64,000 nucleotides of DNA from an uncultured bacterium. GTDB taxonomy: Bacteria; Krumholzibacteriota; Krumholzibacteriia; LZORAL124-64-63. The stretch's first letter is position 1. Each line of letters opens with the position of its first letter. The notes beneath the pieces are model-generated. The model saw only the letters and a program-made list of their open reading frames with translations. It ran no database searches and was not told where the DNA came from. Both the position numbers and the translations under genes were made by a program. Below are positions 7,970 to 64,000 of this stretch, piece after piece. The stretch is from contig CAVSGO010000007.1 in assembly GCA_963727525.1 (NCBI GenBank), positions 32,001 through 96,000 of the forward strand, read 5' to 3'.

Positions 7970-9800
7970 GCGTATAGGTCAAACAGACCACGTTTTCGGA
8001 ACCCCTCCCCCACATGGCGCCGACTCGCGAGCTCGATTCTACCACACTTTTGCCGCGCCTTCGCATGAGACTCGTCCGTGAACCTCGCGACACGCCCGTT
8101 GTGAGCGGCTCGAGGCGTCATTCCGCGGTGCCAATCGCCAGATTTCGTCCCCGCCGCGCAGACTGCTCCCACCGGCCGACTGTCGGGCCTCGCCCCTTGA
8201 CGATTCCGAAGCTCGGGTTCTCAGTCCGCGTCCGGCAGGCCGGCTGTCTGATCCACCTCGTCCCAGATCACTGGACCGCTCGCCTGCGCGAACTCCAGTT
8301 CTCCTTGCGGCGGTGAGCGCGCCGGCAACGTGGCCGGCGGCTCACTCTCCAGATCGAGGTGATCGAGGATCCGCTTGATCACCACCGGGTCCAGGATGAA
8401 GGACAGGATCGTCATCGGACTACCGCAGCGCGGGCATTGCAAAGGCCGCGCGTCGTAGATGCGAGCCAAGAGCAGCGCCCAGCTACGCGACGCTTTGGGG
8501 CGCGGCTGGGTCGCTTCCGTCATCCCCATCGCAGCCCTGGCGCGCTCGAGCGCGAGCAGCACCGTGCCGGCGGGACCGGCGGTCTGTGTGACCGCCCGGC
8601 GCAGCTTCGCCCCTGGAGCGAAGACCCCACAGTACCGATGGCGGTGCTTGCGTGGTGGGGCGAGCAAGTCGACCACGCGCTCGAGGAACTCCAGCGGGCT
8701 CAGCAGGATCTCCGTGCGGCCGTCTGGTCGTGGTCGGCGCAGGCGGTACACCAGGGTGTCGGCATTGAGGCGGCCCAGGCGGCCGGCGGCCAGGGCCGGT
8801 CGCGCGCAGTAACGCACCAGTCGCTCCAGGCCCTGGCGGTCCCAGTCGGCAAGCCTGACCTCGGCGTGCACGGACCAGCCGCCGCCGTGTTGCCAGGTGC
8901 GCATCTCGCTGGCGGCGGCGGCGTCCAGGTGGCCGTGTTTCACGAGCCAGCGCAGGCCGCGGTGGCGGAGCTGATCGCGGACGCGCGTGATGGCGGCCTC
9001 GTCGAGATGGGTGGCCGGATGGAAGACCGCAGCTTCGGCGTCGTCCTCGTCGGCGCTGAACACCCCGTCGGTCACCAGCACATGGAAGTGGACGTGGCTG
9101 TTGAGAGCGTCGCCGAAGCGGTGGACGAAGAGGATGGCGCCGAACTGGGCGTCCGGTGGCGCACCGGGGCTCGCCCGGCGCACGGCTGCCTGCACCGCCC
9201 GCAGGAAGATCCTCGCCAGGCCGTCGACGACCTCGGGCTTGTGCTTGAGGAACCAGCGCACCCGCTTGGGCATCGAGACCACCCACTGCCGGTATGGGAC
9301 GCGTGGCAACACCTCGTCGACGAGGTGGGCGGCTGTCTCCACCATGCGGCGCGTGCCGCAGGATGGGCACAGGTCACGGACCTTGCAACTGAAGGGCACC
9401 AGGATACTCGTGTTTGCACGATGCGCAGCGCACGCGGGCGAAGCCGTGGGCCGGGATGCCGCAGCGCAGGTACTCGCGCAGGGCGCGCTCGGCGGCCGGG
9501 CGCACCGGGCGCAGGTCGGGATCGCGGGATCGCGCCAGGGCGAGGAACGTCTCCAGGTGCTCGCGCACGGTGCGGTGCATGACCGTCGCGGCGGGCTGGC
9601 GGGGGCGGTAGATGGCGGGGCAGGTGGCGGTGTCGGTGGCGAAGGGCATGGTCGCCTGCCGTCGCCGCGGGGCGTCGGGAGGCGGGTGATGGCGTCAATG
9701 GTGGGAGACGGGAGGGATCGCGCACGGAGCGCGAACGCCGGAGATGCATGTCGCGGGCCTCGCTTCGGCGACAGGGGACGAAAGTCATGTCACGTCGCCG
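7970..9800 (-). mobile_element. IS91/ISCR-like rolling-circle element, copy 1 (type-A ori end at 7970; ter end undefined)
   Basis: Transposase followed by about 250 bp of 3' region ending GTTTGACCTATACGC; no terminal inverted repeats or target duplication. Confidence 0.88.
8221..9649 (-). pseudogene. IS91-family Y2 transposase (Zn-binding + HUH), +1 frameshift near 9405
   Basis: YLRCG..HGFARVRC, PFSCK...CPSC, YRQWV, HRFGDALNSHVHFHVLVTDG, LVRYCARP, HRYCGV, CPRCG; split over ORFs 9374..9649 and 8221..9399. Confidence 0.9.
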
Positions 9801-9804
9801 CTGG

Positions 9805-10086
9805 TCAGCGACGGTCGATGAGCACCAGCAAGCTGCGGATGTAGTCGCTGCCCACCCAGGTGTGGGGCATGTCGCCGATGAAGTGGGCGGTCTGCGGATT
9901 GTGCCATACCACCTCGGGCCACTGGCGCCAGCCGACGGGGGTGCGGTGGGCGAGAAAGAACGTGAGCGCCTCTCGAGCGCGATCGTCCCAGCCCAGGCCC
10001 GCGAAGGCGCCGATGTTGCGGATCTCGTACGGCGTGAACGCATCCCATGGCGCGCCGTCGCGGCGAGCGGTGAAGAAGTCCCAGTA
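9805..10086 (-). pseudogene. 3' fragment of six-hairpin glycosidase-like gene (copy 1)
   Basis: WDAFTPYEIR...GWRQWPEVVW...FIGDMPHTWVGSDYIRSLLVLIDRR*; near identical to 19278-19559. Confidence 0.8.
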
Positions 10087-10254
10087 ACGAGTCGATCATC
10101 CTGACGCCGGCAGCCCTCGTATCAGGTTGATAATGATTTCTGGGAATTTTACTAAAGAAAACATCAAAGACAAGAAAACGCGGCCGATCACTCGGGGACA
10201 TGGAGGGTTCATGGCTGAATACCGCAAGGGTGCTACAAGCAGGAGCGCGAGAGC

Positions 10255-16874: not shown

Positions 16875-17446
16875 TCAGTACAGATCGATGCCGGCCGTGA
16901 ACGTCCACTGGTGGCTGGCGCCGTCGTCGAGCGGCGCTCGGTCGAGGTTCGAGCCGTAGTCGAGCGCGGCGTGGAGGCCGTGGTAGGCGTCGAAACGGTG
17001 ACGTAGCCCCGCGCCCCATGCCCAGCCGTCCTCCCAGCTAGAGTCCGTGTGCGTGTGGCTGCCGCGCAGCGTGACGACCTGGCCATAGGTCATCTCGATA
17101 CCGATCGCGGTGCTGGCGAACGACGGGCGGTGATCCTCGAGATCGTCTCGCCAGGCGAGCAGGACGCGGGTGACCAGAGGTCGTGCTCCGCGAACGGGAT
17201 GACCGAGCGCGGCCACACCGCCAATCCCGAATCGGTAGTGGCGAAAGAATGTCGCGCTGGGGAGACCATTGACCGATCCCTCCAGCAGGTTGCGCACGCT
17301 CGCCGTGCCCACGAGGCGAAGGGCGACATCCTCGGTGGTCGCGAACGGCCCGGACACGGTCAGGCCCAGATCGGGGCAGAACACGTCGTCGCCGGATCCG
17401 CCGATGTCGAGGGTGTACTGCTTGAGGCTGGCCCCGATGCTCAGGT
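16875..17446 (-). pseudogene. C-terminal fragment of outer-membrane beta-barrel (PorV-like), truncated at an ori end
   Basis: LSIGASLK, DLG, amphipathic strands, WAWGAGL, LDYG, terminal TAGIDLY; the coding sequence begins at the ori junction 17447. Confidence 0.55.
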
Positions 17447-19273
17447 GGGGGATAGGAATTTCTGCCGCCCTTTTTGACGTTCGTCTCGCCGAGCCCTCGA
17501 CGCGATATCTCGATTCTACTACCTCTTCGCGACGAGATCGCGCTCGCAGTGTCCGTAGACCTTGCGACATGACCATCGTGGCCGGATCGCATCGTGTTTG
17601 ACGACCCGCTGACCGCCGATTTCGCGTCGAGAACGCAGACCTCTGCGATCGGCCGGCTCCCCGGCTGCGGCTGCTCTTGCCTCACGGGGCGGATCTCAAT
17701 CTGCGTCCGGCACGCCCGCCGTCTGGTCCACCTCGTCCCACGTCACTGTGGTCGGGGTCTGTGCGAACTCCAACTCGCCCTGCGGTGGTGAGCGCGCCGG
17801 CAACACCTGCGGCGGCTCACTCTCCAGGTCGAGGTGTTCGAGTATCCGTCTGATCACCGCCGGGTCCAGGATGAAGGCGATGATCGTCGTGGGGCCTCCG
17901 CATCTGGGGCATTGCAGAGACCGAACGTCGTAGATGCGCGCCAGCAGCATCGCCCAGCTGCGCGAAGCCGTCGGCCGCGGTTCGGTCGGCTCGGCCAACC
18001 CCATGGCTGCCCGCGCGCGGTCGACGGCCAGCCGCACTGTGCCCGCAGGGCCGGCTGTCGCGGTCACTGCCCGGCGCAGCTTCGCACCCGGGGCCAGCAC
18101 GCCGCAGTAGCGGTGGCGATGCTTGCGCGGTGGGGCGAGAAGATCGACCAGGCGCTCGAGGAACTCCAGCGGACTCAGCAGAATCTCCGTGCGCCCGTCC
18201 GGACGCGGTCGGCGCAGGCGGTACACCAGGGTGTCGGCGTTCAGGCGTCCGAGGCGGCCGGCGGCCAGCGCCGGGCGTGCACAGTAGCGCACCAGGCGCT
18301 CGAGGCCTTGGCGATCCCAGTCGGCGATCCGCACAGCCGCGTGCACGGACCAGCCGCCGCCGTGCTGCCAGGTGCGCATCTCGCCGGCGGCGGCGGCGTC
18401 GAGATGGCCGTGTTCACAAGCCAGCGCAGGCCGCGGTGGCGGAACTGGTCGCGGATGCGCGCGATGGCCGAGTCGTCGAGGTGGGTGGCGGGGTGAAAGA
18501 TCGCCGCATCCGGGTCTGCGGCGTCGCGGCTGAAGACACCGTCAGTCACCAGAACGTGGAAGTGGACGTGGCTGTTGAGGGCGTCACCGAAGCGGTGCAC
18601 GAAGAGCATGGCGCCGAACTGGGCGTTGCGGGGCGAATCAGGGCTCGCATGGCGCAGTGTCGTTTGCACGGCCCGCAGGAAGACCCTGCCCAGGCCGTCG
18701 ATGACCTCGGGTTTGGTCTTCAGGAACCAGCGCACTCGCTTGGGCATCGACACCACCCACTGGCGGTACGGGACCCGGGGCAGGACATCGTCGACGAGAT
18801 GGGCGGCTGTCTCCACCATCCGGCGTGTGCCGCACGCGGGGCACAGGTCACCGACCTTGCAGGAAAACGGAACCAGGAACTCGTGCTTGCAAGACGCACA
18901 GCGGACGCGAGCGAAGCCATGGGCCGGGATGCCGCAGCGCAGGTACTCGCGCAAGGCGCGGTCGGCGGCCGGACGCACCGGGCGCAGATCGGGATCGTGG
19001 GATCGGGCCAGGGCGAGGAACGTCTCGAGGTGCTCGCGCACGGTGCGGTGCATGACCGTGGCGGCGGGCTGGCGGGGACGGTAGATGGCGGTGCAGGTGG
19101 CGGTGTCGGTGGCCGAAGGCATGGTCGCCTGCCGTCGCCTGGGGGCGTCGGGAGGCGGGTGATGCCGTCAATGGTGGGAGACGGGAGGGATCGCGCACGG
19201 AGCGCGAACGCCGGAGATGCATGTCGCGGGCCTCGCTTCGGCGACAGGGGACGAAAGTCATGTCACGTCGCCG
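17447..19273 (-). mobile_element. IS91/ISCR-like element, copy 2 (type-B ori end at 17447)
   Basis: Transposase plus 3' region ending CAGAAATTCCTATCCCCC; upstream region near identical to copy 1. Confidence 0.88.
17696..19122 (-). pseudogene. IS91-family Y2 transposase, -1 frameshift near 18415
   Basis: Same motifs as copy 1; gtgaacac here versus gtgaaacac in copy 1. Confidence 0.9.
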
Positions 19274-19277
19274 CTGG

Positions 19278-19678
19278 TCAGCGACGGTCGATGAGCACCA
19301 GCAAGCTGCGGATGTAGTCGCTGCCCACCCAGGTGTGGGGCATGTCGCCGATGAAGTGGGCGGTCTGCGGATTGTGCCATACCACCTCGGGCCACTGGCG
19401 CCAGCCGACGGGGGTGCGGTGGGCGAGAAAGAACGTGAGCGCCTCTCGAGCGCGATCGTCCCAGCCCAGGCCCGCGAAGGCGCCGATGTTGCGGATCTCG
19501 TACGGCGTGAACGCATCCCATGGCGCGCCGTCGCGGCGAGCGGTGAAGAAGTCCCAGTATTTCTCGAAGGTGGCCTCGAGGGCGCCGGGGGGCAGGATGG
19601 CGCGGGCCTGGCAGGGGTCGAGGGCGATGGTGGTGGAGGTGGCGTCGAAGTCGCCGAGGTCGGCGCAACCGGGAATGT
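19278..19678 (-). pseudogene. 3' fragment of six-hairpin glycosidase-like gene (copy 2)
   Basis: IPGCADLGDFDATSTTIALDPCQAR...YIRSLLVLIDRR*. Confidence 0.8.
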
Positions 19679-21199
19679 GCCGTACGGGAAGGTGGCGCGG
19701 CCGAACGTCCCGAAGGTGTTGTCGTACCCGCCGTCGGGCAGGAGGCGGGCGACCCCGATGTCGCTCTCACTGCCCCCCACGTTGGCGACGGTGCCGGCGA
19801 TGACCAGCTTGTCGTCGGGCTGGACGACCAGGCCGTACGCAGTCGCCTGCGTCCAGCCGGGGAAGCCGATCGCCTGCTGACGGCCACCGTCGAGCCATCC
19901 CTGGGGCCAGATACGAAGCAGCAAGTGGGACTCGTTCCACGCGCCGTAGATGACGGCACGTCCGTCGGGCAGGAGCGCCAGGGAGTAGCCCGAGCAGAAA
20001 GCCCCACTGCCATTGTAGAGGAAGTCGTGCTGGCCGCCGAGGAATGACAGGTCCAACGAGCCGTCTGCGTTCAGGCTCTTGACCATCACGAAGCCTTTGC
20101 CGTTGGAGTTCTGGTATTCGCCCAGCATCAGGATCCCGCCGTCGGGCCGCACCGCGATGTCCCGGACGGTGAAGTGGTCCGAGACCTGCAACTTGCCGTC
20201 GCCGTCGAACGAGTTGTCGAAGGTCCCGTCCGGGTTGATCCGGACTGCGTAGGCCGGGCCGCTTTCGTTATTGGGATAGGAGATGTACGAGCCGACGACG
20301 ACGATCTTCCCATCGGGCGCGACCGCGACGCCATGCACTTCGTTGTCCAGTGGCCCGATGTCGAATTGTTTCTTTCCCGTCCCATTGAAAGTCGAATCCA
20401 GGTAGCCGCCTGTCGTCAGGCGCACGATCTTGAACACACCGTCCGTGACGACGTCGGTTCCCCCGCCGGCCATCACCAGGCGCCCACTGCCGTCGAGGGT
20501 GGCATCGTAGCAGGCCACGTTGCTGTTGGGCCCCAGGTCGCCAAAGCCGACGGTGATCTTTCCGTCGCCGTTGAACGTGGTGTCCAGGGAGCCGTCCGCA
20601 TTATAGCGGGCGGCGGAGAAGTCGTAGTCGTTGCTGACGAGCGAGCGGCCGGCGGCGATGATCTTCCCGTCGGCCTGAATCATGACGGCATAGGCCTGGT
20701 CGGCGTCCTCCGAAAAGTCCGTCAGCACCCAACCGCCCGAGCCGAAGGTGTGGTCGAGGTGGCCGTCGATGGTCAGGCGGGCCAGCATATAGTTGGCGGG
20801 ACTCGTGTTGGCCCAGCCGGCGACCACGATCCTGCCGTCGGTCTGCACGGCGACACATGTGGCCCGGGTCTGGAACGACGGGTTCAGGATCGCCGCGGCG
20901 CCGGTCCCGTCGGCGAATGTGGTGTCGACGGTGCCGTCGGGAAGGAAGCGCATGACCAGATTGCCCAGTGACGTGTATCCGGCCGTGAGGATCTTCCCGT
21001 CCGGTTGCACGACCATGCCCCGCGCGGCGCAACACATCGGGTAGCCGTACCGGACGACGACCCCGCGGTCTCCGAACCCGGCGAACTCGGTGTCGTCCCG
21101 CTGTCCGCCGAGCGCCGTCTCGGCGCCGCCTGCCACTAGTGCCAAGGCGACTAGCGCGGCGGAGATGCCAACCTGGATGGATCTGACGTAGTCCCTCAT
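19679..21199 (-). pseudogene. Delta-60-repeat beta-propeller secreted protein, 3'-truncated
   Basis: Signal peptide; repeated VQPDGKI / R...DGSLDTTF.G.G motifs; breaks mid-repeat at 19679. Confidence 0.82.
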
Positions 21200-21568
21200 G
21201 ATTTCCTCCGCTCCCGGGTTGCGGCCGGACGGGGTCGCCCGCACCGGTCGTTCTTATCGTTCTTACGCTGGCTTGTCTTGCCCCTACGCACCAGCGTCCC
21301 CCGGCGAACACACGAATCTGTTCGTCAGCCGGCGGTGTCACCGACGCACCGACCGACCAGACGGCATTGGGGCAGGCCGGCACTGCCAGGGGTAGAAAAC
21401 GACGGGGATTGGGAATCAGCCAGGCGGATGGCGCTCATCAACTGGTCGGGCAGGGGTCGGTTGGCGACAAGAACCAACCGGGCTCGTGGCAGCCCGCCCA
21501 CTCGTATGCAAATGACAGCCAAGCATCGGCTTGGCCCAGCGCGTAGCGGTATTGCAGAGTCGACGCCG

Positions 21569-22993
21569 CTACGGCCGGCGCTCGTATACGTCGCGGCCCA
21601 CGAGCATTCGAACGATGTGGTCGTTCTCGTCTGCCTGAAAGACGATCAGCGTTCCGTCCTCGCGTTGGAAGAGGAGGTTTCCCACCGGATAGGCCCTTTT
21701 CCTTTGAAAGACAATGGCGCCGTTGTCGGACGCGGCGACCTCGACCGGCGTTGCCTTCCAGCCGCCCTTTTCCGGCCGGGTGTGGTTGCACATGGCGCTC
21801 GTGTACGATCCCGTCACGCGCGCGAGGCCGCCCCCCCTGCGGCGCGGAAGTTGTTCAGCCGCGTGGGTTATCTGCGGAAGCATGGCGTGCGTGAGAGCCG
21901 GGACGACGGCGTCTGCGAGGGTGGCGGACTCCTGGTTGCAGGCGACGAAGACACCGAGATGCTCGGACGGCACCAGATAGAGGAAACACCCGAACCCTGC
22001 CATGGATCCACCGTGACTCATGGCCGCTACACCTTCGCGCCTGTCTTCCATCAAGATCAGGCCATAGCCTGGGAGGCGTGGGTCGTTGCGAAACTGGGTC
22101 GCGAGCATTGCGCCGGTCGACTCGCGCGAGAGGATGCGCGCGCCGTCACACGCGCCACCTTCGAGGAGTGCGATCATCAGGCGTGCCATGTCGGTGACCG
22201 TGCTGTTCACCGACGAAGCGGGCGCGGTATTCATGTACTCCCACGGCATCGGCTCCCACTCCCCGGCAAAACCGTAGCCGGTGGCGATATCGTCCCGAAA
22301 TTCCGTGGGCACGGCAATGCCGCTTCTCGTCATGCCGAGCGGCGTAAAGATATGGCGCTGGAGATAGTCCTCGTACGCCACGCCGGAAACATCCTCCACC
22401 AGCACGCCGGCAAGCGTGACCGCGTAGGTGTCGTATATGGCCAACTCTCCCGGCGGGCGAATACGCACGAGGTTTCCGCGCAGGAATTCGGCGAGCGGAA
22501 GCACGGAGTCCGGCCCGGCGGCATGGCGCCCATAACCCAACTGGTCGAACCCCGCGGTATGGGTCAGAAGATGCCGGACACGCACGGGCTCATCGAAGGG
22601 GCCGTCCACGTGGATCGACTGCAAGTGCAAGTTCACATCGTCGTCGAGATGGACCTTGCCCGCGTCCACCAGCTGCATCACTGCGATCCCGGTCAACACT
22701 TTGGTGACAGACCCGATGCGAAAGATCGTCTCTTGCGCACTGACGGGCCTCTCCTGGAACACCTCGCGCCGCCCGAATCCCTGCGCGTACACCATCGCGC
22801 CGTCTTTCACGACGGACACCGCGGCGCCGGCGATGTAGCGGTCGGTCATCTTGTTGATGAATACGGGCCGCAGGATTGCATCGACGACTTCGCGCGTCCA
22901 GGCACCGGGGCCACCGACGTCTTCGGCGAACACCCGGATCGGGGCAATCGAGCAAAGCGCTGCTGCCACCGTCAATAAAAGGAACCGCTTCAT
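21569..22993 (-). CDS. Serine hydrolase, beta-lactamase/AmpC-like family, secreted
   Basis: FRIGSVTK, LLTHTAG, YDT at the YxN position, IFTPLGM, HGG. Confidence 0.9.
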   Translation of the reverse strand: MKRFLLLTVAAALCSIAPIRVFAEDVGGPGAWTREVVDAILRPVFINKMTDRYIAGAAVSVVKDGAMVYAQGFGRREVFQERPVSAQETIFRIGSVTKVLTGIAVMQLVDAGKVHLDDDVNLHLQSIHVDGPFDEPVRVRHLLTHTAGFDQLGYGRHAAGPDSVLPLAEFLRGNLVRIRPPGELAIYDTYAVTLAGVLVEDVSGVAYEDYLQRHIFTPLGMTRSGIAVPTEFRDDIATGYGFAGEWEPMPWEYMNTAPASSVNSTVTDMARLMIALLEGGACDGARILSRESTGAMLATQFRNDPRLPGYGLILMEDRREGVAAMSHGGSMAGFGCFLYLVPSEHLGVFVACNQESATLADAVVPALTHAMLPQITHAAEQLPRRRGGGLARVTGSYTSAMCNHTRPEKGGWKATPVEVAASDNGAIVFQRKRAYPVGNLLFQREDGTLIVFQADENDHIVRMLVGRDVYERRP

Positions 22994-23456
22994 CAGAGAT
23001 CTCCCCGTAGTCCGCTCGTCTCCCCCCTGGCCACAACAATCCCCATAGTCGATCAGTTACTCGGCCGTATAGGCCGCCCTCCTGCGCTCGCGTAACCTCT
23101 ACCAGGAACCGCGATGCCAACCAGGCTGTGGCGATGAATATCACATCTGCTCTCCCCATTCAAGATCCTCGCTCGGGCTGGCTCGCGCACCGCGGGATCG
23201 CGACCCGATCCCGCCTTCGGCAATGAGGGCACACTGTCAGGGAAGGCGCTCGGAGATGCGGGTCGGCAGCAGGGCCCTCAGCGATGGCAAAACCATTGTG
23301 CGCCCGGCACGGCCGGAAGTACGCATTTTTCACATGCCGGACCGAATTAGTTACCAAACGACCCGTAACTGGCTTCAATTACAGCAGTTCAACTAGCGAT
23401 TCTCAAGTTGCGTAAACCGGATAATATTAGTAATCTTACCGCAAATGGCTCACAAC

Positions 23457-24176
23457 GGGGGATAGGAATTTCTGACCCCCTTTTCGACGTTCGTCTCGCC
23501 GAGCCCTCGACGCGATATCTCGATTCTACTACCTCTTCGCGACGAGATCGCGCTCGCAGTGTCCGTAGACCTTGCGACATGACCATCGTGGCCGGATCGC
23601 ATCGTGTTTGACGACCCGCTGACCGCCGATTTCGCGTCGAGAACGCAGACCTCTGCGATCGGCCGGCTCCCCGGCTGTGGCTTCTCTTGCCTCACGGGGC
23701 GGATCTCAATCTGCGTCCGGCACGCCCACCGTCTGGTCCACTTCGTCCCAGGTCACGGCGGTCAGGGTCTGTGCGAACTCCAACTCGCCCTGCGGTGGTG
23801 AGCGCGCCGGCAACACCTGCGGCGGCTCACTCTCCAGGTCGAGGTGTTCGAGTATCCGTTTGATCACCGCCGGGTCCAGGATGAAGGCGATGATCGTCAT
23901 GGGGCCTCTGCATCTCGGGCATTGCAGAGACCGGACGTCGTAGATGCGCGCCAGCAGCATCGCCCAGCTGCGCGAAGCCTTCGGCCGCGGTTCGGTCGGC
24001 TCGGTCAATCCCATCGCTGCCCGCGCGCCGTCGAGGGCCTGCCGTACTGTGCCCGCAGGGCCGGCCGTCGCGGTCACTGCCCGGCGCAGCTTCGCGCCCG
24101 GTGCCAGCACGCCGCAGTAGCGGTGGCGGTGCTTGCGCGGTGGGGCGAGTAGATCGACCAGGCGCTCGAGGAACTC
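23457..24176 (-). mobile_element. IS91-like 3' fragment with type-B ori end (copy 3)
   Basis: 720-bp near-identical direct repeat of 17447-18166. Confidence 0.9.
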
Positions 24177-26248: not shown

Positions 26249-26557
26249 ATGCCGCACGGTCACGACCTCGATCCACCGATCACCCGCATCACCGAGGTCC
26301 GCTCGGAATACACATCGGCGCGGCTGATCTGCGCCAACCTCGCGTACCGGCTCGCGGGCACCCGCTATCAGCGCGCGCCGGGCTACCTGCCGGCAGAGAT
26401 CGATTTTCCTCGACCCGACGGCAAGCTGGCGACGCTCGAGGTGCGCGACTACGACGTCCGCCATCTCGACCGCGTCGCGAAAGGCCGCGCGGTTCGTCGG
26501 GGCCGGACCTCGTCTGATCAGCGGCGGTCGATGAGTGTCAGCAAGCTGCGGATGTAG
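26249..26557 (+). CDS. Small hypothetical protein or fragment
   Basis: Coding-like codon usage MPHGHDLDPP...LEVRDYDVRH; 3' end overlaps the glycosidase fragment. Confidence 0.3.
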   Translation: MPHGHDLDPPITRITEVRSEYTSARLICANLAYRLAGTRYQRAPGYLPAEIDFPRPDGKLATLEVRDYDVRHLDRVAKGRAVRRGRTSSDQRRSMSVSKLRM

Positions 26558-27615
26558 TCGCTGCCCACCCAGGTGTGGGGCATGTCGCCGATGAAGTGGG
26601 CGGTCTGCGGATCGTGCCATACGACCTCGGGCCACTGGCGCCAGCCGGCAGGGGTGCGGTGCGCGAGGAAGAACGCGAGTAGCTCCTGGGCGCGGTCGTT
26701 CCAGCCCAGGTGGACGAAGGCGCCGATGGTGCGGATCTCGTAGGGCGTGAACGCCTCCCATGGGGCGCCGTCGCGGCGAGCGGTGAAGAAGTCCCCCAGT
26801 ACTTCTCAAAGGTAGCGTCGAGAGCGCCGCGGGGCAGGATGTCGCGGGCCTGGCAGGGGTCGAGGGCGATGGTGGTGGAGGTGGCGTCGAAGTCGCCGAG
26901 GTCGGCGCAGCCGGGGATATAGGGGATGTTGTGCGCTTTCATCGCGGCGGCGATGGAGGCGCCGAGGTCGGTGGCGAAGCGGTCGCGCAGGGTGGCCAGT
27001 CGTGCCTGCTGGGCGGGGTCGCCCATGGCGGTGGCCAGGTCGACGGCGTCCTTGTAGCCGCGCAGGGCCCAGAAGTCGTCCCAGTAGGAGTGCATGGGCT
27101 TGGCCGAGTAGCCCTCGTGGCTGATGTTCGGCGGGAGGATGCCGTAGAACTCGGTGCCCGCGAACTCTGGCGTGCGGCGCTCGTCGAGCAGGCTCTCGAG
27201 GTAGGCGATGCCGTTCAGCACGCGCGGCCACATCGCGGTGAGCACGTCGCGGTCGCCGGTGGTGCGCCAGTACTCGGCGACCAGGAAGATGAACTCGCCG
27301 GTGGAGTCGTGCTCGGGCACGGGGTCGGCGCCGCGGCGATCGACGACGCAGGGGATCTTGCCGTTCTCGTACTGGTGGGGCGCGAACCAGAGCAGGAAGT
27401 CGCGTGCCGCGTCGGTGAAGCCCAGGCGCAGCAGGGCCTCGCTCGTGAGGGCGCCGTCGCGGATCCAGCTACGCGCGTAGGCGCAGGTGCCCGGCTGGAT
27501 GGCCGGACCCGCGCGGTTGACCAGGATGAAGCCGAGCTGGGCCTTCAGCGTGAGCAGTGCGTCTTCCATTCCAGGCGGCGCGACCAGGTCGACGCGTGCC
27601 AGTTTTCCCTCCCAG
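26518..27615 (-). pseudogene. Longest 3' fragment of six-hairpin glycosidase-like gene (copy 3), frameshift near 26795
   Basis: QPG..AYARSWIRDG, GKIPCVVD, EHDSTGE, SHEGY, HSYWDDFWAL, GDFDATST, TPYEIR, GDMPHTW. Confidence 0.85.
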
Positions 27616-27659
27616 CAATCGGTGGCGGCGCGGGTCACCGATACGGGATTGACGGGCTG

Positions 27660-27830
27660 CATCGGCGAGGTTGGCTCGTCTGATGGTCTTGGGTACTGTC
27701 GCGGCCGTCGCCGGACAGAGTGGTTCCCCGCGATGTCAACGATCGTCGCGTCCGGGGTTACGCGGCTTCGCGGTAGTACCGGCTATGTAACCCACCCAGA
27801 AATTGGCGGCGTCTCACCGGCCCAACGTCG
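27660..27830 (-). repeat. Duplicated 3' end of the rve element at 38473-39842
   Basis: Matches about 38595-38760 (tgatggtcttgggtactgtcgcggccgtcg...cccaacgtcg; encodes FLGGLHSRYYREAA*). Confidence 0.88.
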
Positions 27831-28871
27831 TCCATCTCGACGAAGCCGCCATCACGCGCGGCCGCGATCAGCCCGTCACCGCGGACTGCGCTGGCTCGTG
27901 ACGCACGGCCACCTGGATGCCGCTGCCGCCAGCGAGATGCGCACCTGGCAGCACGGCGGCGGCTGGTCCGTGCACGCGCAGGTCAGGATTGCCGATTGGG
28001 ACCGCCAGGGCCTGGAGCGACTGGTGCGTTACTGCGCGCGACCCGCCCTGGCCGCCGGCCGCCTGGGCCGCTTGAACGCCGACACCCTGGTGTACCGCCT
28101 GCGCCGCCCACGACCGGACGGCCGCACGGAGATCCGGCTGAGTCCGCTGGAATTCCTCGAGCGCGTGATCGACTTGCTCGCCCCACCACGCAAGCACCGC
28201 CATCGGTACTGCGGCGTGCTCGCTCCAGGAGCGAGGCTGCGCCGGGCGGTGACGCAGACCGCCGGTCCCGCCGGCACGGTGCTGCTCGCGCTCGATCGCG
28301 CCAGGGCTGCGATGGGCATGGCGGACGCGTCCGAGCCGCGCCCCAAGGCGTCGCGTAGCTGGGCGATGCTGCTGGCGCGGATCTACGACGCGCGGCCTTT
28401 GCAATGCCCACGATGCGGCAGCGCGATGACCGTCCTGGCGTTCATCCTGGACCCGGCGGTGATCAAGCGGATCCTCGATCACCTCGATCAGGAGAGTGAG
28501 CCGCCGGTCACATTGCCGGCGCGTTCACCGCCGCAGGGAGAACTGGAGTTCGCGCCGGCGAGCGGTCCAGTGATCTGGGACGAGGTGGATCAGACAGCCG
28601 GCCTGCCAGACGCGGAATGAGAACCCGAGCTTCGGAATCGTCAAGGGGCGAGGCCAGACAGTCGGCCGGTGGGAGTGGTCTGCGCGGCGGCGAGGAAATC
28701 TGGCGATTGGCACCGCGGAACGACGCATCGAGCCGCTCACAACGGGCGTGTCGCGAGGTTCACGGGCGATTCTCATGCGAAGGCGCGGCAAAAGTGTGGT
28801 AGAACCGAGCGCGCGAGTCGGCGCCATGTGGGGGAGGGGTTCCGAAAACGTGGTCTGTTTGACCTATACGC
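27831..28871 (+). mobile_element. IS91-like 3' fragment with type-A ori end (copy 4)
   Basis: Transposase C-half (stop 28620) and 3' region ending GTTTGACCTATACGC; inverted relative to copy 1. Confidence 0.9.
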
Positions 28872-31720: not shown

Positions 31721-31866
31721 GAGGTCTCCTGGGGAGCGACGGCGGTCCGGATCGTGGCCATGGCCAAGCACCGTGCGCGGCGGATCCGCGCACGGTGCTG
31801 CTTCAATATTATTGTATTGATCTTATCATGATTGTTGTGCCGCGGCAATGCCGCGGAAATCCACCC

Positions 31867-32527
31867 GGTGACGCCCTCAACAGCCACGTCCACTTCCACG
31901 TTCTGGTGACTGACGGTGTCTTCATCCGCGACGCCGCAGACCCGGACGCGACGATTTTCCACCCCGCCACCCACCTCGACGCGGCCGCAGCCAGCGAGAT
32001 GCGCACCTGGCAGCACGGCGGCGGCTGGTCCGTGCACGCCGCTGTGCAGATCGCCGACTGGGATCGCCAAGGCATCGAGTGCCTGGTGCGCTACTGTGCA
32101 CGCCCGGCGCTGGCCGCCGGCCGCCTCGGACGCCTGAACGCCGACACCTTGGTGTACCGTATGGGGTGACCGCGCTCCGATGGCACGACGGAAATCCTGC
32201 TTACCCCGCCGGAGTTTCTCGAACGCCTAGTCGACCTGCTCGCTCCATCGCGCAAGCATCGCCACCGTTACTGCGGCGTGCTGGCCCCGGGCGCGAAGCT
32301 GCGCCGGGCGGTAACCGCGACGGCCGGCTCCGCGGGCACGGTACTGCAGGCTCTCGAAGGTGCACGGGCAGCGATGGGATTGGCCCAGCCGACCGAACCG
32401 CGGCCGAAGTCTTCGCGTAACTGGGCGATGCTGTTGGCGCGCATCTACGACGCTCGGGTTTTGCAGTGCCCCCGCTGCGGCGGTCCCATGATGATCATCG
32501 CCTTCATCCTGGACCCCGCGGTGATCA
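31867..32527 (+). mobile_element. IS91-like internal transposase remnant (copy 5)
   Basis: GDALNSHVHFHVLVTDG...CPRCGG...LDPAVI; deletion between the two HLD repeats; frameshifts. Confidence 0.88.
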
Positions 32528-32911: not shown

Positions 32912-33264
32912 CTAAACGCGGCGAAGTGTGGTGGGCAGAGCTTGCTGCTCCGCAGGGGTCGGGGCCTGGCTTCCGTCGACCGGTGCTGATCATTCAAGCT
33001 GATTCGTTCAATCGGAGCCGCATCGCGACTCTGATAGTTATCGCGATTACATCGAATCTCGCTCTCGTGGACGCGCCGGGGAATGTGTTGCTTAAGTGCC
33101 GCGAGAGTAAGTTGCCTCGCGACTCCGTCATCAACGTCTCGCAAGTACTCACACTTGATCGGCGTTACTTGGTTGAACGGGTGGGCCGTCTATCAGCCAA
33201 GTCGCTTCGCGAAGTTGAAGCCGGATTGTACCTCGTGCTAGGGCTGCAGGCGAGCGTGGGATAA
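32905..33264 (+). CDS. PemK/MazF family toxin (probable CTG start)
   Basis: KRGEVWWA, GSGPGFRRPVLIIQ.D.FN.S, AITSN, DSVINVSQ; stop lies in the attC R'' box. Confidence 0.92.
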   Translation: MVAKRGEVWWAELAAPQGSGPGFRRPVLIIQADSFNRSRIATLIVIAITSNLALVDAPGNVLLKCRESKLPRDSVINVSQVLTLDRRYLVERVGRLSAKSLREVEAGLYLVLGLQASVG

Positions 33265-38424: not shown

Positions 38425-38472
38425 TCGATCGTCATCGTCACCGAGGGCAACGGCCACTCGTTCTCCTTCTCC

Positions 38473-39842
38473 TGTGCCTAATCAAAACTCCATCTGCCGC
38501 GCGATCGGCGTCGTAAATCGGCGTTCCCGGGTTTGCTGACGCCGGAAAGCTGAGAATGGCGGCCGGAATCGGCGCCGGTCGGCTGGGCTACTCGTCGAGG
38601 TTAGCTCGTTTGATGGTCTTGGGTACTGTCGCGGCCGTCGCTGGACAGAGTGGTCCCCAGCGATCTCACCGACCGTCCCGACCTGGGTTACGCGGCTTCC
38701 CGATAGTACCGGCTATGTAACCCACCCAGAAATCGGCGGCGTCTCACCGGCCCAACGTCGGGCGGTTCGACCGGTCGTCCATCCGGCGTGTCCTTGCCGA
38801 GGCCGAGGTGGGTTCGCGAACCATGGTAGTACTCGAGATACTGCTTGAGGAGCTTCGTGCGTGGGGCTCGTTGAAGACAATGACGTGATTCAGACACTCG
38901 CGCTTCAGGGTGCCGACGACACGTTCGCAGTAGCTGTTCTGCCACGGCGATCGCGCGCTGATCACCCTCTCCTCGATGCCCCTTACGCGTAGGACGGTTT
39001 CGACCTCGCCACTGTAGATCCGATCGCGATCGCGAATGAGGAACCGCGGTGCGGTATCGAAGGGGAATGCCTGGATGATCTGGCGAGCGGTCCATTCGCC
39101 GGTCGGGTGGGCGGTGACGTTGAGGTGGACGATCTGCCGTCGGTCGAGAGAGAGAATGACAAAGATGTAGATGGTCTTGAACATGACGGTGGGGACGGTG
39201 AGGAAGTCGATGGCGCAGGTCTCGCGGAGGTGGTTGTCGAGAAACGTCCGCCAGTTCTGGGTAGGTCGGCCTCGTCACTTGACCATGTACCTCGCGACGG
39301 TCGCTTCCGACACGAAGTAGCCGAGTTTCAGGAGTTCGCCGTGGATGCGCGGCGCGCCCCAGGTGGGGTTCTCGCGTGACACGCGGCGGATCAGCTCGAC
39401 AACGTCAAAGGGGATGCGGGGCCTACCTACCGCCTGTGGTCGGCTCTTGCGCCTCCACCAGAGGCGCCATCCCTTTCGGTGCCAGGCGATCACGGTCTCA
39501 GGTTGGACGAGGCGCAGCGGTCGCCGCCAGCCTGCCCAGTAGCGGCAAAGCAGGAGCCAGAAAGTCCGGTCCAGAGCTGTGAATGGTGGCCTGGGATTCG
39601 ATCGCTGCAGCACGAGGATCTGCTGGCGCAGGGCGAGGTTCTCGATGACCAGGTCACGGCGCGGGCGAACGAGGTCGCGCAGGAATTCGAGGACGATGTT
39701 TGGCATGGGTAGGGATCGGCCGTTTGAGCGACTAGTTGAGACCCACGGAATTGGTCAGCAGCGACGATTTAGAGCGTCGGCTTGTGGTATACTCGTGAAG
39801 TCGTAACTCTGGTCGTGGCAATGCCGACGGGGTTTTGAGGAG
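38473..39842 (-). mobile_element. Decayed rve (integrase core/DDE) IS-like element
   Basis: End TGTGCCTAATCAAAACTCCATC (38473-38494) with an imperfect truncated inverted copy GACGGGGTTTTGAGGAG (39826-39842). Confidence 0.7.
38688..39706 (-). pseudogene. Integrase core domain transposase; in-frame TGA at 39275-39277 and frameshift near 38855
   Basis: ENLALRQQ, ENPTWGAPRIHGEL, AIDFLTV, LIRDRD, SPWQN..CER, LGGLHSRY. Confidence 0.88.
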
Positions 39843-39923
39843 AAAGTATGGTAGGATCGAGGGAGAGAGCTGGCGCCATGGGGGAAAGGCGTTTCGAAAA
39901 CGTGATCTGTTTGTCGTATACGC
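39843..39923 (+). mobile_element. Isolated type-A ori end (copy 6)
   Basis: aaagtatggtagga...gcgccatgggg...cgaaaacgtgatctgtttgtcgtatacgc matches 28791-28871. Confidence 0.82.
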
Positions 39924-40089
39924 CGGCACCGACTACGAGCTCGACGGCGGGACCACCCGCTTTTCCATCGAGATCGCGGGCCTGACCATCGAGTGGCTCA
40001 CCGCCATCCGTATCCTGAACGACACCTTTTCGCGCGACGGCTTCGAGATCACGCCCGCCGACGCCGACGCCGACATCGTCGGGCGCTAG
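39924..40089 (+). pseudogene. 3' fragment of unknown gene cut at the ori junction
   Basis: GTDYELDGGTTRFSIEIAGL...DIVGR* with strong GC3 bias; no start. Confidence 0.45.
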
Positions 40090-45692: not shown

Positions 45693-46357
45693 TACTCGCC
45701 CCACTGCGCAAACACCGCCGCCAGTAAAGCGGGGTGCTGGCGCCGGGGGAGAGGTTACGCACGGCGGAGACGTAGACCGCCGGCCTCGCACGTACAGTGT
45801 TGCAGGCACTTGAGCGCGCACGAGTGACGATGGGGATGACGGAATCGACCGCGCCGCGTCCCAAAGCTTCTCGCAACTGGGCGCTGCTGCTGGCGCGGAT
45901 CTACGACTCTCGGCCGTTGCAGTGCCCACGATGCGGCAGCGCGACGACCGTCCTGGCATTCATCCTGGACCCGGCGGTGATCAAGCGGATCCTCGATCAC
46001 CTGAACCTGGAGAGTGAGCCGCCGGTCACATTGCCGGCGCGTTCACCGCCGCAAGGGGAACTGGAGTTCGCGCCGGCGCCGGGTCGAGTGACCTGGACGA
46101 GAGCTGAGAATCCCGGACCTGAGATCGCACGACAGCGAGGCCCGACAGTCGACCGGTGGGGGCGGTCTGCTCAGCAGGGGCGCAATCAGGCGATCCGCAT
46201 CGCCGAACAACGCCGCGGGTCGATGTTGGCGGGCGCGTCGGGAGGTTCACAGGCGAATCTCGTGCGAACGCGCGGCGAAAGTGTGGTTGAAACGAGCCAG
46301 AGAGCTGGCGCCATGGGGGAAAGGGGGTTCGAAGACGTGGTCTGTTTGTCTATACGC
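45693..46357 (+). mobile_element. IS91-like 3' fragment with type-A ori end (copy 7)
   Basis: Decayed LAPLRKH...CPRCG...GELEFAP; ends GTTTGTCTATACGC. Confidence 0.88.
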
Positions 46358-46517
46358 ATACGCTCAGGTGGAGTTTCCGAACATCGACGAGGGATTTCGC
46401 AAGCAGCACGCTTCCGCCGCGTTCTGACGCACGGTGCCGTCGCGGCGCCGTGCAACTTCTCTGGCTCCCCTGCGTCCAGATAGCCCCGACCCGGTCACTC
46501 CACTCCAGGGGGTTCCC

Positions 46518-47813: not shown

Positions 47814-48139
47814 CGATCGGCCGCGGCACAGGTCCACTCGTCGAAGAGACCATTCCTGTCTCGATGTCCTTGTTCTCGCCGGTGGTTTCAGCGGATGGTA
47901 ACGTCACATGTGGTACAATCGGCAAGGTGCGACGGCGTGCCGGAAAAGCACCCTACCTCTGTCCGCCACGTGGGGGGAGCAACGATGAAGACTGCCATGG
48001 CGATCCTGCTGGTCGGCTTCGCCACCACCACGGCGGATGCCGATCCACCGTGTTTCGGCTACGCGACGGCACCACGCCCGCGTGGTCGGCGCCGAACTCC
48101 GTCCAGAAGAAGAGCCAGTCCTTGCGCCAGATGGCCACG

Positions 48140-48545
48140 GATCGGATTTGGCGCTCGAGATGATTCGTGTCCAGAGGGACGGCGCGGTCATCGAATTCGA
48201 TCAGTACTCCGTGGGCCGTGGCGAGGGGTGTACGGATCACACAATGCCAATCACCGGGCATGGGAATGGGTTCTCGGGCGGCTCGGACGCCACCGTACTC
48301 CTCGGAAGGCGGGACGGGAATCAGATCGAATTGCATGACAATCACATCCTCAACAACGGCGGTCTGAGCGTACGGGTATACGCGCAGAGGACGGATGAAG
48401 ACCCGGACCACATCGATCTGAGTGACAACTACTGGGGGACGACCGATCCGGCGCAGATCGCAATGTGGATCAACGACTAGAACGACTATGATCCGCGAGA
48501 CAACTTCTATTCGTGGGTCATCGTGGATTACGCACCGTTCTTGTT
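48140..48545 (+). pseudogene. Remnant of beta-helix-type secreted protein
   Basis: IDLSDNYWGTTDPAQIAMWIND*NDYD...VDYAPFL with internal TAG at 48478-48480. Confidence 0.5.
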
Positions 48546-48615
48546 GTATACTCGTGTTCATCTTGTCGCGGCAGCTAGGCCGCATCGGCCGATGACATGA
48601 ACATGGGGAGGCATC

Positions 48616-50600: not shown

Positions 50601-50846
50601 ATGGATACCGTTCACCGGGCCGTCGAGAAGGCGCGGCGGGCGGGTCTGGATGCCATGCCGGCGGTGGTCGTCACGGGTTCCGCAAACCTGCTGTCCATGC
50701 GCCGGGTTTCCGGATCCCTCGCCGGACGTACGAGCTAGGTCACGCTCTGGCCGATGACCCGCCACGAGTCGCTCGGTCTGGGGCGGTGCGCCTTATGGGA
50801 GGAACTCATCGCCGCCAGGGACGCGGACTGGCGCGAACTCCTGGCC
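50601..50846 (+). pseudogene. Remnant of AAA_14/DUF4143-type ATPase
   Basis: MPAVVVTG|SANLLSMRRVSGSLAGRTS*VTLWPMTRHE; Walker A region deleted, internal stop. Confidence 0.65.
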
Positions 50847-51232
50847 GACGCGCAAGCTGCGATCTTCGATCCCGCCGTTCATCTCGACGAGGCCTCCATC
50901 ACGCGGTTCGCGATCAGCTGCATCACCGCGGCCTGCGCTGGCTCGTGAAGCACGGCCACGTGGACGGCGCCGCGGCCAGCGAGATGCGCACCTGGCAGCA
51001 CGGTGGCGGCTGGTCCGTGCACGCGCAGGAGGGAGCAGTCGGCGCGGCGGGCGCGGCATCACGCGATCCGGCTCGCGGAACGACGTAACCAGCCGGTCGC
51101 GGTGGACAGGTCGTGAGGTTCACAGGCGATTCTCGCGCGAGCACACGGCGAAAGAATAGTGGAATCGAGATGACGCGGCCGCGTGTTGGCGGAAACCGCG
51201 GTTCGAAAATGGCGTCAGTTTTTACTGTACGC
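50847..51232 (+). mobile_element. Internally deleted IS91-like remnant with degenerate ori end (copy 8)
   Basis: AAIFDPAVHLDEASI...WQHGGGWSVHAQ, then a jump to the 3' region ending gtttttactgtacgc. Confidence 0.8.
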
Positions 51233-51489
51233 CGTTCTTCCTGCCGCTAAATGCCTTTAGTATTGTATGAATTCAGGAGTCGGCCATGTAAAGAACCGTC
51301 TGCCCTGTCTTACGGTTTTTACCGAATTGAATATATGGATCGGTTGGCATATGTTCGGCCAAAGGTCGCATATCCGGCTACCATCTGAGCGAGTATTCAA
51401 CAGTAAGAAATTTTTACCGGGGCGCAGCAGTATTTGCATGCGCTCTCGGAGTAACCACCAGTCCAACTCTATCAAAGAAGGAGGCCGTT

Positions 51490-54214: not shown

Positions 54215-54551
54215 CCAATTCGCGGTCGATCTGTCGGTTGACGGTGGTGGAGCAGACGGCGAGATCGCGAGCGGCCTGGCGATTGGCCATCGCGCCGCAG
54301 GTCGTGGTCATGAGCTGGGGGAGGATGTCGGGTCGCTTGAGCCAGTAGTCCGGGGAGAAGGTCTGTGAACTGAAGGAGACGCGGCAGTGTAGGCAGAGAA
54401 ACCTGGGGATACGCTGGGTATGGGCCTGGCGGGTGAAGAAGCCGATGCGTTTGAATCGCCAGCCTGGCTGGAGTTCGCTGTGGAACAGGCAGTTATGGTT
54501 GGGGCAGAAGGGCGGCAGCCAGCTGGGATGGTGGGATTCGATGCACGCCAT
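54215..54551 (-). pseudogene. N-terminal fragment of Zn-ribbon (InsA-like) transposase
   Basis: PPFCPNHNCLFH, RFLCLHCRVSFSSQTF, HTH-like RQAARDLAVCSTTV; no catalytic domain. Confidence 0.6.
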
Positions 54552-54729
54552 GGCCCCCGGCTAGGGCAAGCCGGAGGCCGGACACATTTTCGAGGGCACA
54601 ACCAAAGGAATCTATTCTCGGACGCGATTGAGATCGGGCCACCTTATTGGATTCGATATGCAATTGTCAATACGGCTGAAACCGTTCAAACCAGGCGCGA
54701 TCACGCGGCAAATTCGGTCGGGGTGCGGC

Positions 54730-54878
54730 GGTCGCGTTCAGTCCCATCGCCGCTCGAGAGCATGCAGCACCGTGCTCGCCGGGCCGGTCGTCTTTGTGAC
54801 TGCCGTCCGCAGCTTACCCCCCCCCAGCGCCGGCACGCCGCGGCACCGGTGGCGATGTCGGCGCGGTGGGGCGAGAAC
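54730..54878 (-). mobile_element. IS91-like transposase remnant (copy 9)
   Basis: LAPPRRHRHRCRGV...KLRTAVTKTTGPASTVLHALER. Confidence 0.75.
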
Positions 54879-61724: not shown

Positions 61725-61800
61725 TCGTCCGCCGAGCGCGCTACGCAATTGCCTGCGCGACGGCATCCCGGATCATGGCTTAGCCCGCGTGCGCAGCGAG
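61725..61800 (+). mobile_element. IS91-like transposase 5' remnant (copy 10)
   Basis: AERALRNCLRDGIPDHGLARVRS versus AERALREYLRCGIPAHGFARVRC in copy 1. Confidence 0.7.
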
Positions 61801-62067: not shown

Positions 62068-62265
62068 ATGAGTCGATTCATCTGCAACTTTGACGGCAGG
62101 TTCGCGTTGTCGCTGCGGTTCATACTTTCGCTCATCGCCGTTGGGTCCGGCCTGGCCCACGCCGATTTCGTGTTCGTGCCCGATACCGATCAGCTGCCGC
62201 TATACGTGGACAGTTTTCCCAAAGCGATCGTCGCCGGCCAATTCGCAGGCGATGAGCGACCGATG
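62068..62265 (+). pseudogene. N-terminal fragment of secreted (FG-GAP-like) protein
   Basis: Signal peptide ...GLAHA-DF, then AIVAGQFAGDERP; degenerates before the IS4. Confidence 0.35.
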
Positions 62266-62382
62266 CGGGCGCATCGCATTGGGCCGGCGTCTGTCAATTC
62301 TTCGCGTGGGGATGGGGGGCCAGGACAATCGTCGCCAGATTGGGTGATCTGCGCCATCGGTGCGGCGTTTATCAGTTCAATT

Positions 62383-63804
62383 CACTGCTGTCCTAAACAG
62401 GACAGGGTTGTCGCACCGACCCCCGATTTGTATCGACTTACCCGCCTGAGATTCCAAAACGTGGGATGAGGTTGCCCTCTTTTACCGTGCTCTGCCCTGC
62501 CCCTGTTTTACTCGGCTGTCCAAATCAGCGTAGGTTCAGCTCCATCTGCTCTGGTAGCGGTGTCAGCGGTGGTGTCCGGAACGGATCATCGAGCCAGTCC
62601 CTCAACTCCCTGTACGTGAACAGGTTCAGCCTCAGCATGGCCGCCAAATTCGACAACGACCAGTTGGCCTTCGACAGGTGGTGCAGCCACTTCAGCAGGA
62701 GCATCGCGATCAGTGCTGTCCAAATCTGGATGCGTAGAGCGTTCTCGCTCGTGCCGACGAAGCTGCGCACCTTGAGGTTCTGCTTCAGCGCCTTGAAGAA
62801 CAGCTCGATCTGCCAGCGCTCTTTGTAGATGTCAGCGATCGTCGTGGCACCGAAGTCGAGGTGATTGGTGAGCAAGACGATCTCGCGTTCGTTCAGGCAA
62901 TCCCAGACGACAATGCGGCGCAGGTAGCAGGGGCACTTCTTCTCGGCCTGCGGTCCGGCAAGTGCGATCACTTCGTCGGACAGGATGTTGCGGTTGACGG
63001 GAACAGGGAAGCTCTGGACCACCTCGTAGACGGCGTTGGCCTTCATCCGGGTCACGAAGTAGATCCCCTCTTCGGTCCAGCGGGCGAACTGTCCGTAGTC
63101 GTTGTACGCACGGTCCATGGCCACGATCGAACCAGGCTGCAGCTTCAAGGAGTTGAGCACCTTGGCATCGTGCATCTTCGCCTCGCTGATCAGCACATAC
63201 GACGGCAGGTAGTCCGTGTGGTTGAGCAGGACATGGGCTTTGACCCCTCCTTTGGCTCGGCGGAACTTCGCCCAGGGAAACAGCGCCAGGCAGAGGGTGA
63301 TCGTCGTCGAGTCCAGCGACAGCAGCTTGTTCTTGAAGCGGAACTTGTGCTTGCGGCCGCCGAACCGCCCTTCGCTGCGGAAGCGGTCCGTCATCGCCCA
63401 GAACAGGTCCTCGAACATCGCGGCAGGACGATGGGCGTTGGCGTAGGACAGGTTGGACTTGGTCGGTTTGCGGGCGATACCCAGATGGACGAGTTTGCCG
63501 AGGCAACAGGCCAAGCCATTGCAGATCTCCCGCAGGGAGTCGGCTTGAGCCATCTGACAGAACAGCATCGCCGTCAACTGGGCCCAGCAGGTAAAGCCCT
63601 TGGCATGGCGTTCCCCCTGGTGCTGGCGGACCAAACTGGCGAACTCGTTGCGGGGAATCTGCTGCAGAAGTTGACCGAACAGGCTGGATGACCGTACCAT
63701 CGGGATGCCCTCCGGGTGAGAAGTGAATCTGGTCTCTTGGTCGAAACCGATTCTCTCACAAGCCCGGGGGGCCTTCAACTCAAGGGCTGTTTAGGACAAG
63801 AGTG
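62383..63804 (-). mobile_element. IS4 family insertion sequence, intact
   Basis: Inverted repeats CACTGCTGTCCTAAACAG / CTGTTTAGGACAAGAGTG (16/18); 9-bp direct repeat AGTTCAATT at 62374-62382 and 63805-63813. Confidence 0.96.
62525..63700 (-). CDS. IS4 family transposase (DUF4372 + DDE)
   Basis: SLREI, LDSTTI, KAH, MDRAY, YKERWQIELFFKALKQ; likely ATG 63700. Confidence 0.95.
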   Translation of the reverse strand: MVRSSSLFGQLLQQIPRNEFASLVRQHQGERHAKGFTCWAQLTAMLFCQMAQADSLREICNGLACCLGKLVHLGIARKPTKSNLSYANAHRPAAMFEDLFWAMTDRFRSEGRFGGRKHKFRFKNKLLSLDSTTITLCLALFPWAKFRRAKGGVKAHVLLNHTDYLPSYVLISEAKMHDAKVLNSLKLQPGSIVAMDRAYNDYGQFARWTEEGIYFVTRMKANAVYEVVQSFPVPVNRNILSDEVIALAGPQAEKKCPCYLRRIVVWDCLNEREIVLLTNHLDFGATTIADIYKERWQIELFFKALKQNLKVRSFVGTSENALRIQIWTALIAMLLLKWLHHLSKANWSLSNLAAMLRLNLFTYRELRDWLDDPFRTPPLTPLPEQMELNLR

Positions 63805-63882
63805 AGTTCAATTTTCGGAGAGCAGCAGATCGGTTGTGCGATCGCTGACCACCCCGGCAACGGCGGACCCCTTCTGAACGAG

Positions 63883-64000
63883 CTACTCGCCCCACTGCGC
63901 AAACACCGCCACCGGAATTGCGAGGTGCTGGCCCGGGGGTGAGCCTACGCGCGGCGGTGACGCAGACAGCCGGTCCCGCAGGTTCTTGAGTGCGCACGTG
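63883..64000 (+). mobile_element. IS91-like transposase remnant (copy 11, runs off window)
   Basis: ctactcgccccactgcgcaaacaccgcc shared with copy 7; ...AVTQTAGPAG. Confidence 0.75.

Follow-up and report, generated by a model that had tools for sequence, protein, structure and literature searches.

Does an array of rolling-circle element pieces, lying among unrelated genes, mark a device that gathers and shuffles those genes, or a place in the chromosome where such elements land and decay? The question is raised by 64,000 nucleotides from an uncultured Krumholzibacteriota bacterium (C7:32001-96000 of an 8-contig, 4.66-Mb genome with 67% G+C), hereafter the window, in which pieces of one IS91-like insertion sequence (IS) alternate with other genes. 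An earlier note on this DNA had proposed a gene-capture platform. We conclude that the window probably lies in a variable, transposon-rich zone of the chromosome, the principal site where, over a long time, an ISCR-like IS of the IS91 family has landed and decayed, its one-ended transposition products then being reworked by recombination. The copy map and the junctions described here are known from the assembled contigs alone.

The transposase and the ends of the element

The element is approximately 1.77 kb long (reference 1772 nt) and encodes a 475-amino-acid HUH transposase, of which one intact gene lies at C5:7669-9093. In copy A of the window (pieces are labelled A to J plus K; Table 1), the open reading frame matches PF04986 Y2_Tnp (E 1.7e-36) and PF14319 Zn_Tnp_IS91 in Pfam; tnpA is frameshifted in copy A, with the break near 9400, and in copy B. 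The intact transposase passes the NCBIfam model transpos_IS91 (NF033538) with 129.3 bits, the cut-off being 125, and the top-scoring NCBIfam model is ISCR_clade_Ia, with 237.3 bits, far under its cut-off of 925. The Pfam and NCBIfam matches bear out the IS91/ISCR-like rolling-circle element that the earlier note had named. The closest named relatives among plasmid records are ISVsa3 (ISCR2; 33.5% identity over 92%) and ISCR1 (30.4% over 91%). The transposase aligns with both from end to end, including the HUH (HxH) motif and the RY..RP tyrosine motif, and a segment of ~45 amino acids found in both is absent from it. A single catalytic tyrosine in a conserved motif is the trait that defines ISCR elements; in the alignment, which covered ISCR1 and ISCR2, the motif holds one invariant tyrosine, Y280, within RYCARP, aligned with RYISRP of those two. 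From the sequence of its transposase, the element is classed as a new, ISCR-like addition to the IS91 family.

Two different ori ends were found, and there are therefore at least two subfamilies. Both are sharp and identical from one unrelated context to the next: the A-type end, ...GTCTGTTTGACCTATACG(C), gives way to different sequence in each of 9 contexts, and the B-type end, ...AATTCCTATCCCC, occurs in 4 contexts (B, C and two copies upstream of the window). In a relative from another genome, two 100%-identical copies of 1756 nt define the exact ends, with a comparable ...GCCTATTCGC terminus. No target duplication was seen at the 9 A-type and 4 B-type ori junctions, nor at the relative's two identical copies, in agreement with the earlier note. 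The element has the two unlike ends, free of terminal inverted repeats and target-site duplication, by which the IS91 family is recognised. Eight of the nine A-type junctions read ...CCTATACG and then C, where CGCN could belong to the target or to the element; neither GTTC nor CTTG is present as a target tetranucleotide next to the ori end at A-type junctions. At the opposite end, the four 5'-complete copies (those on C5 and C8, A and B) share sequence from ~65 bp upstream of the start codon. In the ISCR subgroup, terIS is missing or unrecognised and read-through is obligatory; unlike ISCR elements, relatives of the present element have a discrete left end.

The likeness to ISCR elements extends to distinct ori and ter ends, the lack of target duplication and the presence of ori-end pieces beside unrelated gene blocks. 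A difference lies in the setting: the element is chromosomal, its host is an uncultured environmental bacterium, and there is no integron or integrative and conjugative element context and no known resistance gene. An intact gene reading away follows the ori ends of A, C and F at a distance of 71-464 bp (intervals 7886-7964, 22993-23457 and 46363-46434). This arrangement recalls the outward promoters in the ori end of ISCR1, which the available text of PMC13393415 describes together with the structure of ISCR elements.

Copy map, end asymmetry and orientation

The earlier note had proposed mapping the copies genome-wide and testing for clustering. BLAST with seven reference pieces as query located 47 element pieces (19.8 kb in total), 20 of them in C7:1-102 kb and 15 in C7:2.11-2.34 Mb, with zero pieces in the 2.0 Mb of C7 between both zones. 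The two zones, at the ends of C7, comprise 333 kb of 4.66 Mb (7% of the genome) and hold 35 of the 47 pieces, a concentration far from chance; the remaining 12 are on C1, C2, C3, C5, C6 and C8, mostly close to contig ends. The same distribution was obtained by tblastn with the intact transposase. Because copies cluster in C7:1-102 kb, the array in the window belongs to a larger zone, which begins with base 1 of the contig. The map flags ~330 kb of the genome as a plastic zone.

Within the window, self-BLAST found related sequence at all 11 places named in the earlier note. Identity to the reference copies ranges from 68% to 100%, and the note's description of copies from near-identical to badly decayed was apt: clustered here are copies of very different ages. 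Its count of seven ori ends, five of them without the 5' part, becomes six (A, B, C, D, K and F) and four at a strict threshold; since G ends ~60 nt before the ori terminus, seven and five are correct only with G counted. The pieces form orientation runs, with A, B and C on the minus strand and D, E, K, F and G on the plus strand.

Table 1. Element pieces in the window and the gene fragments and paralogue that bear on their history (window coordinates unless a contig is named).
Feature	Position	Strand	Remarks
Copy A, full-length, A-type	7964-10086	-	ori end at 7964; tnpA frameshift; gene X fragment ~9801-10086 (94 codons)
Copy B, full-length	17447-19676	-	B-type ori end 17447-17690; tnpA frameshifted; gene X fragment 19281-19676 (132 codons)
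Copy C, 5'-truncated	23457-24176	-	B-type ori end retained; 96% identity to B
Copy D, 5'-truncated at reference position 728	27832-28871	+	A-type ori end at 28871
Copy E, internal piece, neither end	31866-32527	+	
Stub K, ori-end stub of ~82 nt	39843-39924	+	directly abuts IS3-family element
Copy F, old (76%), 5'-truncated, ori end retained	45693-46363	+	71 bp upstream of PF00144 serine-hydrolase gene
Copy G, decayed, internal deletion	50843-51233	+	extends to reference position 1709 of 1772
Piece H, short decayed internal piece (71-75%)	54713-54877	-	
Piece I, 73-nt internal piece, 5' third of element	61726-61798	+	
Piece J, decayed copy	63875 onwards	+	crosses window end, up to C7:96417
Gene fragment beside B	16878-17441	-	interrupted at the ori end of B; retains the C-terminal 188 codons of a protein of 352 aa (family unknown)
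DUF5122 (delta-60 repeat) gene	19682-21244	-	lacks the last ~430 codons; truncated where B's captured flank has its far edge
Gene X, fuller-length paralogue of the A/B fragment	26538-27662	-	no Pfam family; sub-threshold six-hairpin glycosidase matches only

The two ends of the element are retained very unequally across the genome. The ori end is reached by 18 of the 47 pieces and the other end by 4: both ends are present in 3, the ori end only in 15, the ter end only in 1 and neither in 28, and the sole ter-only piece is the near-complete C8 copy, whose match ends at 1709 of 1772. The preferential retention of the ori end proposed in the earlier note thus holds genome-wide. A little upstream of the window lie three ori-only copies with 98.7-99.9% identity to the intact type, and such identity indicates that these 5'-truncated copies are recent. 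In five other genomes with relatives of the transposase, the matches merged into 31 places, 5 of full length, 12 with the C-terminal (ori-side) end only, 2 with the N-terminal end only (one of them spanning residues 7-431) and 12 internal. Arrays of one orientation recur in other Krumholzibacteria genomes: in G041 a single strand bears each of the 7 places, and the same is true of the 9 in G042. The G042 array includes at least four pieces, 88-94% identical, that lie no more than 16 kb from a full copy.

Orientation was also compared with the direction of replication, the leading strand being assigned by the sign of the GC skew within 100 kb. In 38 of the 47 pieces, the sense strand of the transposase gene is the leading one (binomial p 2.5e-5, a value that overstates the bias because the pieces are not independent). 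The 9 places of G042 fall between 2.81 and 4.20 Mb, each on the minus strand, in a region where the sampled skew is mostly negative and the coding-strand excess mostly minus; all 9 are on the leading strand of one replichore. Unlike the IS91 family in a survey of Proteobacteria, which the available text of PMC3971601 gives as biased against the direction of the replication fork, the pieces here run mostly with it. On C7 the GC skew switches sign at ~940 kb, and two tyrosine-recombinase genes lie at this sign change, the likely terminus (C7:933120-943581). Six consecutive minus-strand pieces, A, B and C among them, occupy C7:21230-56176 (in the window, up to 24176) and are flanked by plus-strand pieces. 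The replication bias has its main exception in this run, which may be an inverted segment.

Origin of the truncated copies and of the array

Copies A and B carry, upstream of their 5' end, the 3' end of a gene that we call gene X (its last 94 and 132 codons, 381-500 bp). The segment 26514-26918, in the gene X paralogue of the window, is 90% identical to the flank of B, and a second paralogue lies at C3:407322-408343 (87%). Gene X as a part of the element was considered and rejected, neither of its two fuller paralogues having the element alongside. Judged by this comparison, the fragments on A and B are captured or shared flank, and the capture of flanking DNA that the earlier note had claimed has at least one case. 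Over this flank of ~400 nt, A and B are 100% identical; over the body they are 75-95% identical, and their ori ends are unrelated. With such a mosaic profile, at least one of A and B must be a recombinant. Together with this profile, the cut genes on either side of B and the IS3 sequence at two 5' breaks point to recombination or deletion between copies.

We infer a rolling-circle origin for both the truncated copies and the shared flank. In the mechanism proposed, the transposase would nick the ori end downstream of its gene, and rolling-circle copying would run from ori towards the 5' (ter) end with sloppy termination. An early stop would give 5'-truncated copies with an ori end, and an overrun past the ter end would give copies that bring upstream DNA with them, for which the gene X fragment carried by A and B would be a case in point. 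The present mosaic, with its cut neighbouring genes, would be the later outcome of homologous recombination between copies, of deletions and of the arrival of other ISs. The one-ended products typical of the IS91 family are present here as a pattern, namely 15 ori-only pieces against 1 ter-only piece and the shared gene X flank.

Such products are known from characterised relatives. In the available text of PMC3189936, right-end fragments 229-679 nt long made up 26% of the insertions of IS801 recovered in a trap, and some of the insertions had brought along upstream DNA, 290-1431 nt in length. The earlier note had suggested an undescribed system; since the IS801 experiments in that source yielded truncated ori-end pieces as well as captured upstream DNA, what is seen here is known behaviour of the IS91 family. 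The rates of one-ended transposition quoted for IS91 and IS1294 are 1-14%, and IS91 is described with target tetranucleotides and a single-stranded circle as substrate (available text of PMC13181058). The one-ended products of IS801, IS91 and IS1294 are ori fragments and elements carrying upstream DNA, and both patterns are present here; unlike in those elements, no tetranucleotide of the GAAC/GTTC/CTTG type was recognised at ends or targets, and the terminal sequences are unrelated. The share of fragments that keep the ori end is far higher here than for IS801 in Pseudomonas syringae (5/17, in the text available from PMC3189936). Like Helitrons, as treated in the accessible part of PMC4778049, the element would start at one end and terminate imprecisely, leaving truncated copies and picking up fragments of flanking genes. 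The likeness is confined to mechanism: the present element has no helicase domain, is much smaller and lives in a prokaryotic host.

Several observations weigh against a rolling-circle origin followed by recombination. Compared with shuffled sequences, neither the A-type nor the B-type ori end folds better (z -0.88 and +1.15, respectively), and the end of a related element forms a clear hairpin (z -2.67). No truncated copy was demonstrable as a simple insertion with an intact empty site, and for each single copy truncation after insertion is therefore possible. The 13 mapped 5' breakpoints have no clear common motif, whereas IS801 fragments begin at a defined tetranucleotide; CG starts 5 of the 13 breaks against a background of 0.14 (p ~0.03, picked after looking). 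For the P. syringae genomes, most IS801 fragments were put down to rearrangement (PMC3189936, in the part available). Here, IS3 sequence at two or three of the 5' breaks suggests later rearrangement: the 5' break of D abuts an internal IS3 fragment at 27654-27830, and K directly abuts the end of a complete 1372-bp IS3-family element (38471-39842). The common flank of A and B could stem from gene conversion or segmental duplication and not from read-through. Finally, contigs end in element-rich zones.

The first alternative is the gene-capture platform itself, in which the ori-end stubs are sites of repeated starts, and perhaps preferred insertion sites, and blocks arrive as units of cargo plus ori end, as in ISCR arrays or Helitrons. 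It would fit the placement of the pieces, mostly intergenic, every 4-9 kb and in runs of one orientation, with a gene just downstream reading away from 4 of the 6 ori ends; the composition of the blocks is heterogeneous, a real capture of 381-500 bp exists, and arrays of C-terminal pieces in the same orientation recur in G041 and G042. Set against this, the blocks of 4-9 kb that the earlier note took to be brought or shuffled by the element have no close copy elsewhere in the genome. What is repeated from the window is limited to gene X (87%), a glyoxalase gene (85%) and other IS elements, and the sole demonstrable capture is a gene fragment. Furthermore, no head-to-tail junction between an ori end and the start of another unit was found, the cargo gene types are common in the lineage (for example, a kinase-TPR family with 26 matches in the genome), and the unrelated transposons abundant in the zone are alone enough to explain the mosaic. 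We regard the platform as unlikely, and it seems reasonably likely that what lies between the pieces is the zone's ordinary stock of accessory genes.

A bolder form of this idea, which we hold to be speculative and rather improbable, is that the ori-end stubs serve as re-usable start or attachment sites at which a transposase acting in trans builds co-oriented cargo-ori arrays along the direction of replication. If it were true, this would be a chromosomal gene-shuffling system, integron-like in its outcome. It would be of frequent occurrence among Krumholzibacteria and other environmental phyla, clinical ISCR loci being the only place where it has been seen to date.

A plain IS graveyard, with full copies placed by ordinary transposition and pieces left by later random deletion and decay without any rolling-circle by-products, is very unlikely. 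It would account for the 28 of 47 pieces with neither end, for identities as low as 68% and for IS3 sequence at some breaks, and the same conclusion was drawn for IS801 of P. syringae in the available part of PMC3189936; random decay, however, predicts equal loss of both ends, and we see 15 ori-only pieces against 1 near-complete ter-only piece, with 12 against 2 elsewhere, as well as three recent 5'-truncated copies 98.7-99.9% identical to the intact type. We give hardly any credence to an assembly artefact in which repeats were collapsed or misjoined: C3, C5, C7 and C8 do end in or near element-rich DNA, but the copies differ by 0-30%, their flanks are unique, every ori junction is distinct, and independent assemblies of other genomes hold similar arrays.

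ISCR and IS91 elements are known mostly from resistance plasmids and from virulence plasmids of plant pathogens. If the window is, as we consider probable, a landing and decay ground for one-ended products, a distant relative of these elements dominates the variable part of the chromosome in an uncultured lineage. It would then offer a very clean natural record of one-ended transposition, combining 15 ori-only pieces against 1 ter-only piece with a captured gene fragment, and a natural data set on the termination and landing sites of rolling-circle ISs. The element also has a replication strand bias; no new mechanism is revealed.

Neighbouring genes and other transposons

Copy B sits between two genes, each of which is cut on its B-facing side. 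The fragment at its ori end covers only residues 227-413 of its paralogue, and the DUF5122 gene, compared over 19682-21094, matches only residues 55-529 of a 958-amino-acid paralogue. The earlier note had listed cut neighbours; by comparison with the paralogues this stands for the fragment and the delta-60 gene, and the label 'PorV-like' gained no support from Pfam, in which neither the fragment nor its full paralogue has a match.

The blocks between the pieces encode a chemoreceptor, two histidine kinases, a DJ-1/PfpI protein, two PF00144 serine hydrolases, two Ser/Thr kinases, an extracytoplasmic function (ECF) sigma factor, a CitMHS transporter and several secreted proteins ending in FlgD_ig or Por_Secre_tail. 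A passenger gene tied to ori ends was considered and rejected, the PF00144 genes beside the ori ends of C and F being only 23% identical. The G+C content of the window ranges from 0.54 to 0.71 per kb. A low-GC block (0.54-0.56) at 4063-7886, with an HNH endonuclease, P63C-domain and VasI-like proteins, ends at the ori end of A, and a MazF/PemK-like toxin gene (32926-33264; E 2.1e-22) lies in a stretch of lower GC after piece E. A 385-bp sequence at 54222-54606, overlapping a 134-amino-acid open reading frame without a Pfam match, recurs at ~93% at C5:301620, C7:1557246 and C7:2084358, outside the IS91-rich zones.

Other transposases in the window are of the IS21, IS3, IS66 and IS4-like types, and rve and DDE_Tnp_1 matches fall in the same zones as the element pieces. 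Around the IS3 element beside stub K, no matching 3-bp flanks were found. A truncated copy that had simply inserted into IS3 was also considered and found no support, the flank past the ori end at C7:21230 not looking, by eye, like the remainder of the IS3 gene. An IS21-family element at 1006-3700 encodes IstA (rve and Mu-transpos_C_2) and IstB between inverted ends (1006-1126 and 3581-3700). An IS66-family transposase fragment lies at 47953-48585, and a transposase gene with DUF4372 and DDE_Tnp_1 at 62525-63778 is 77% identical to C8:121135-122556.

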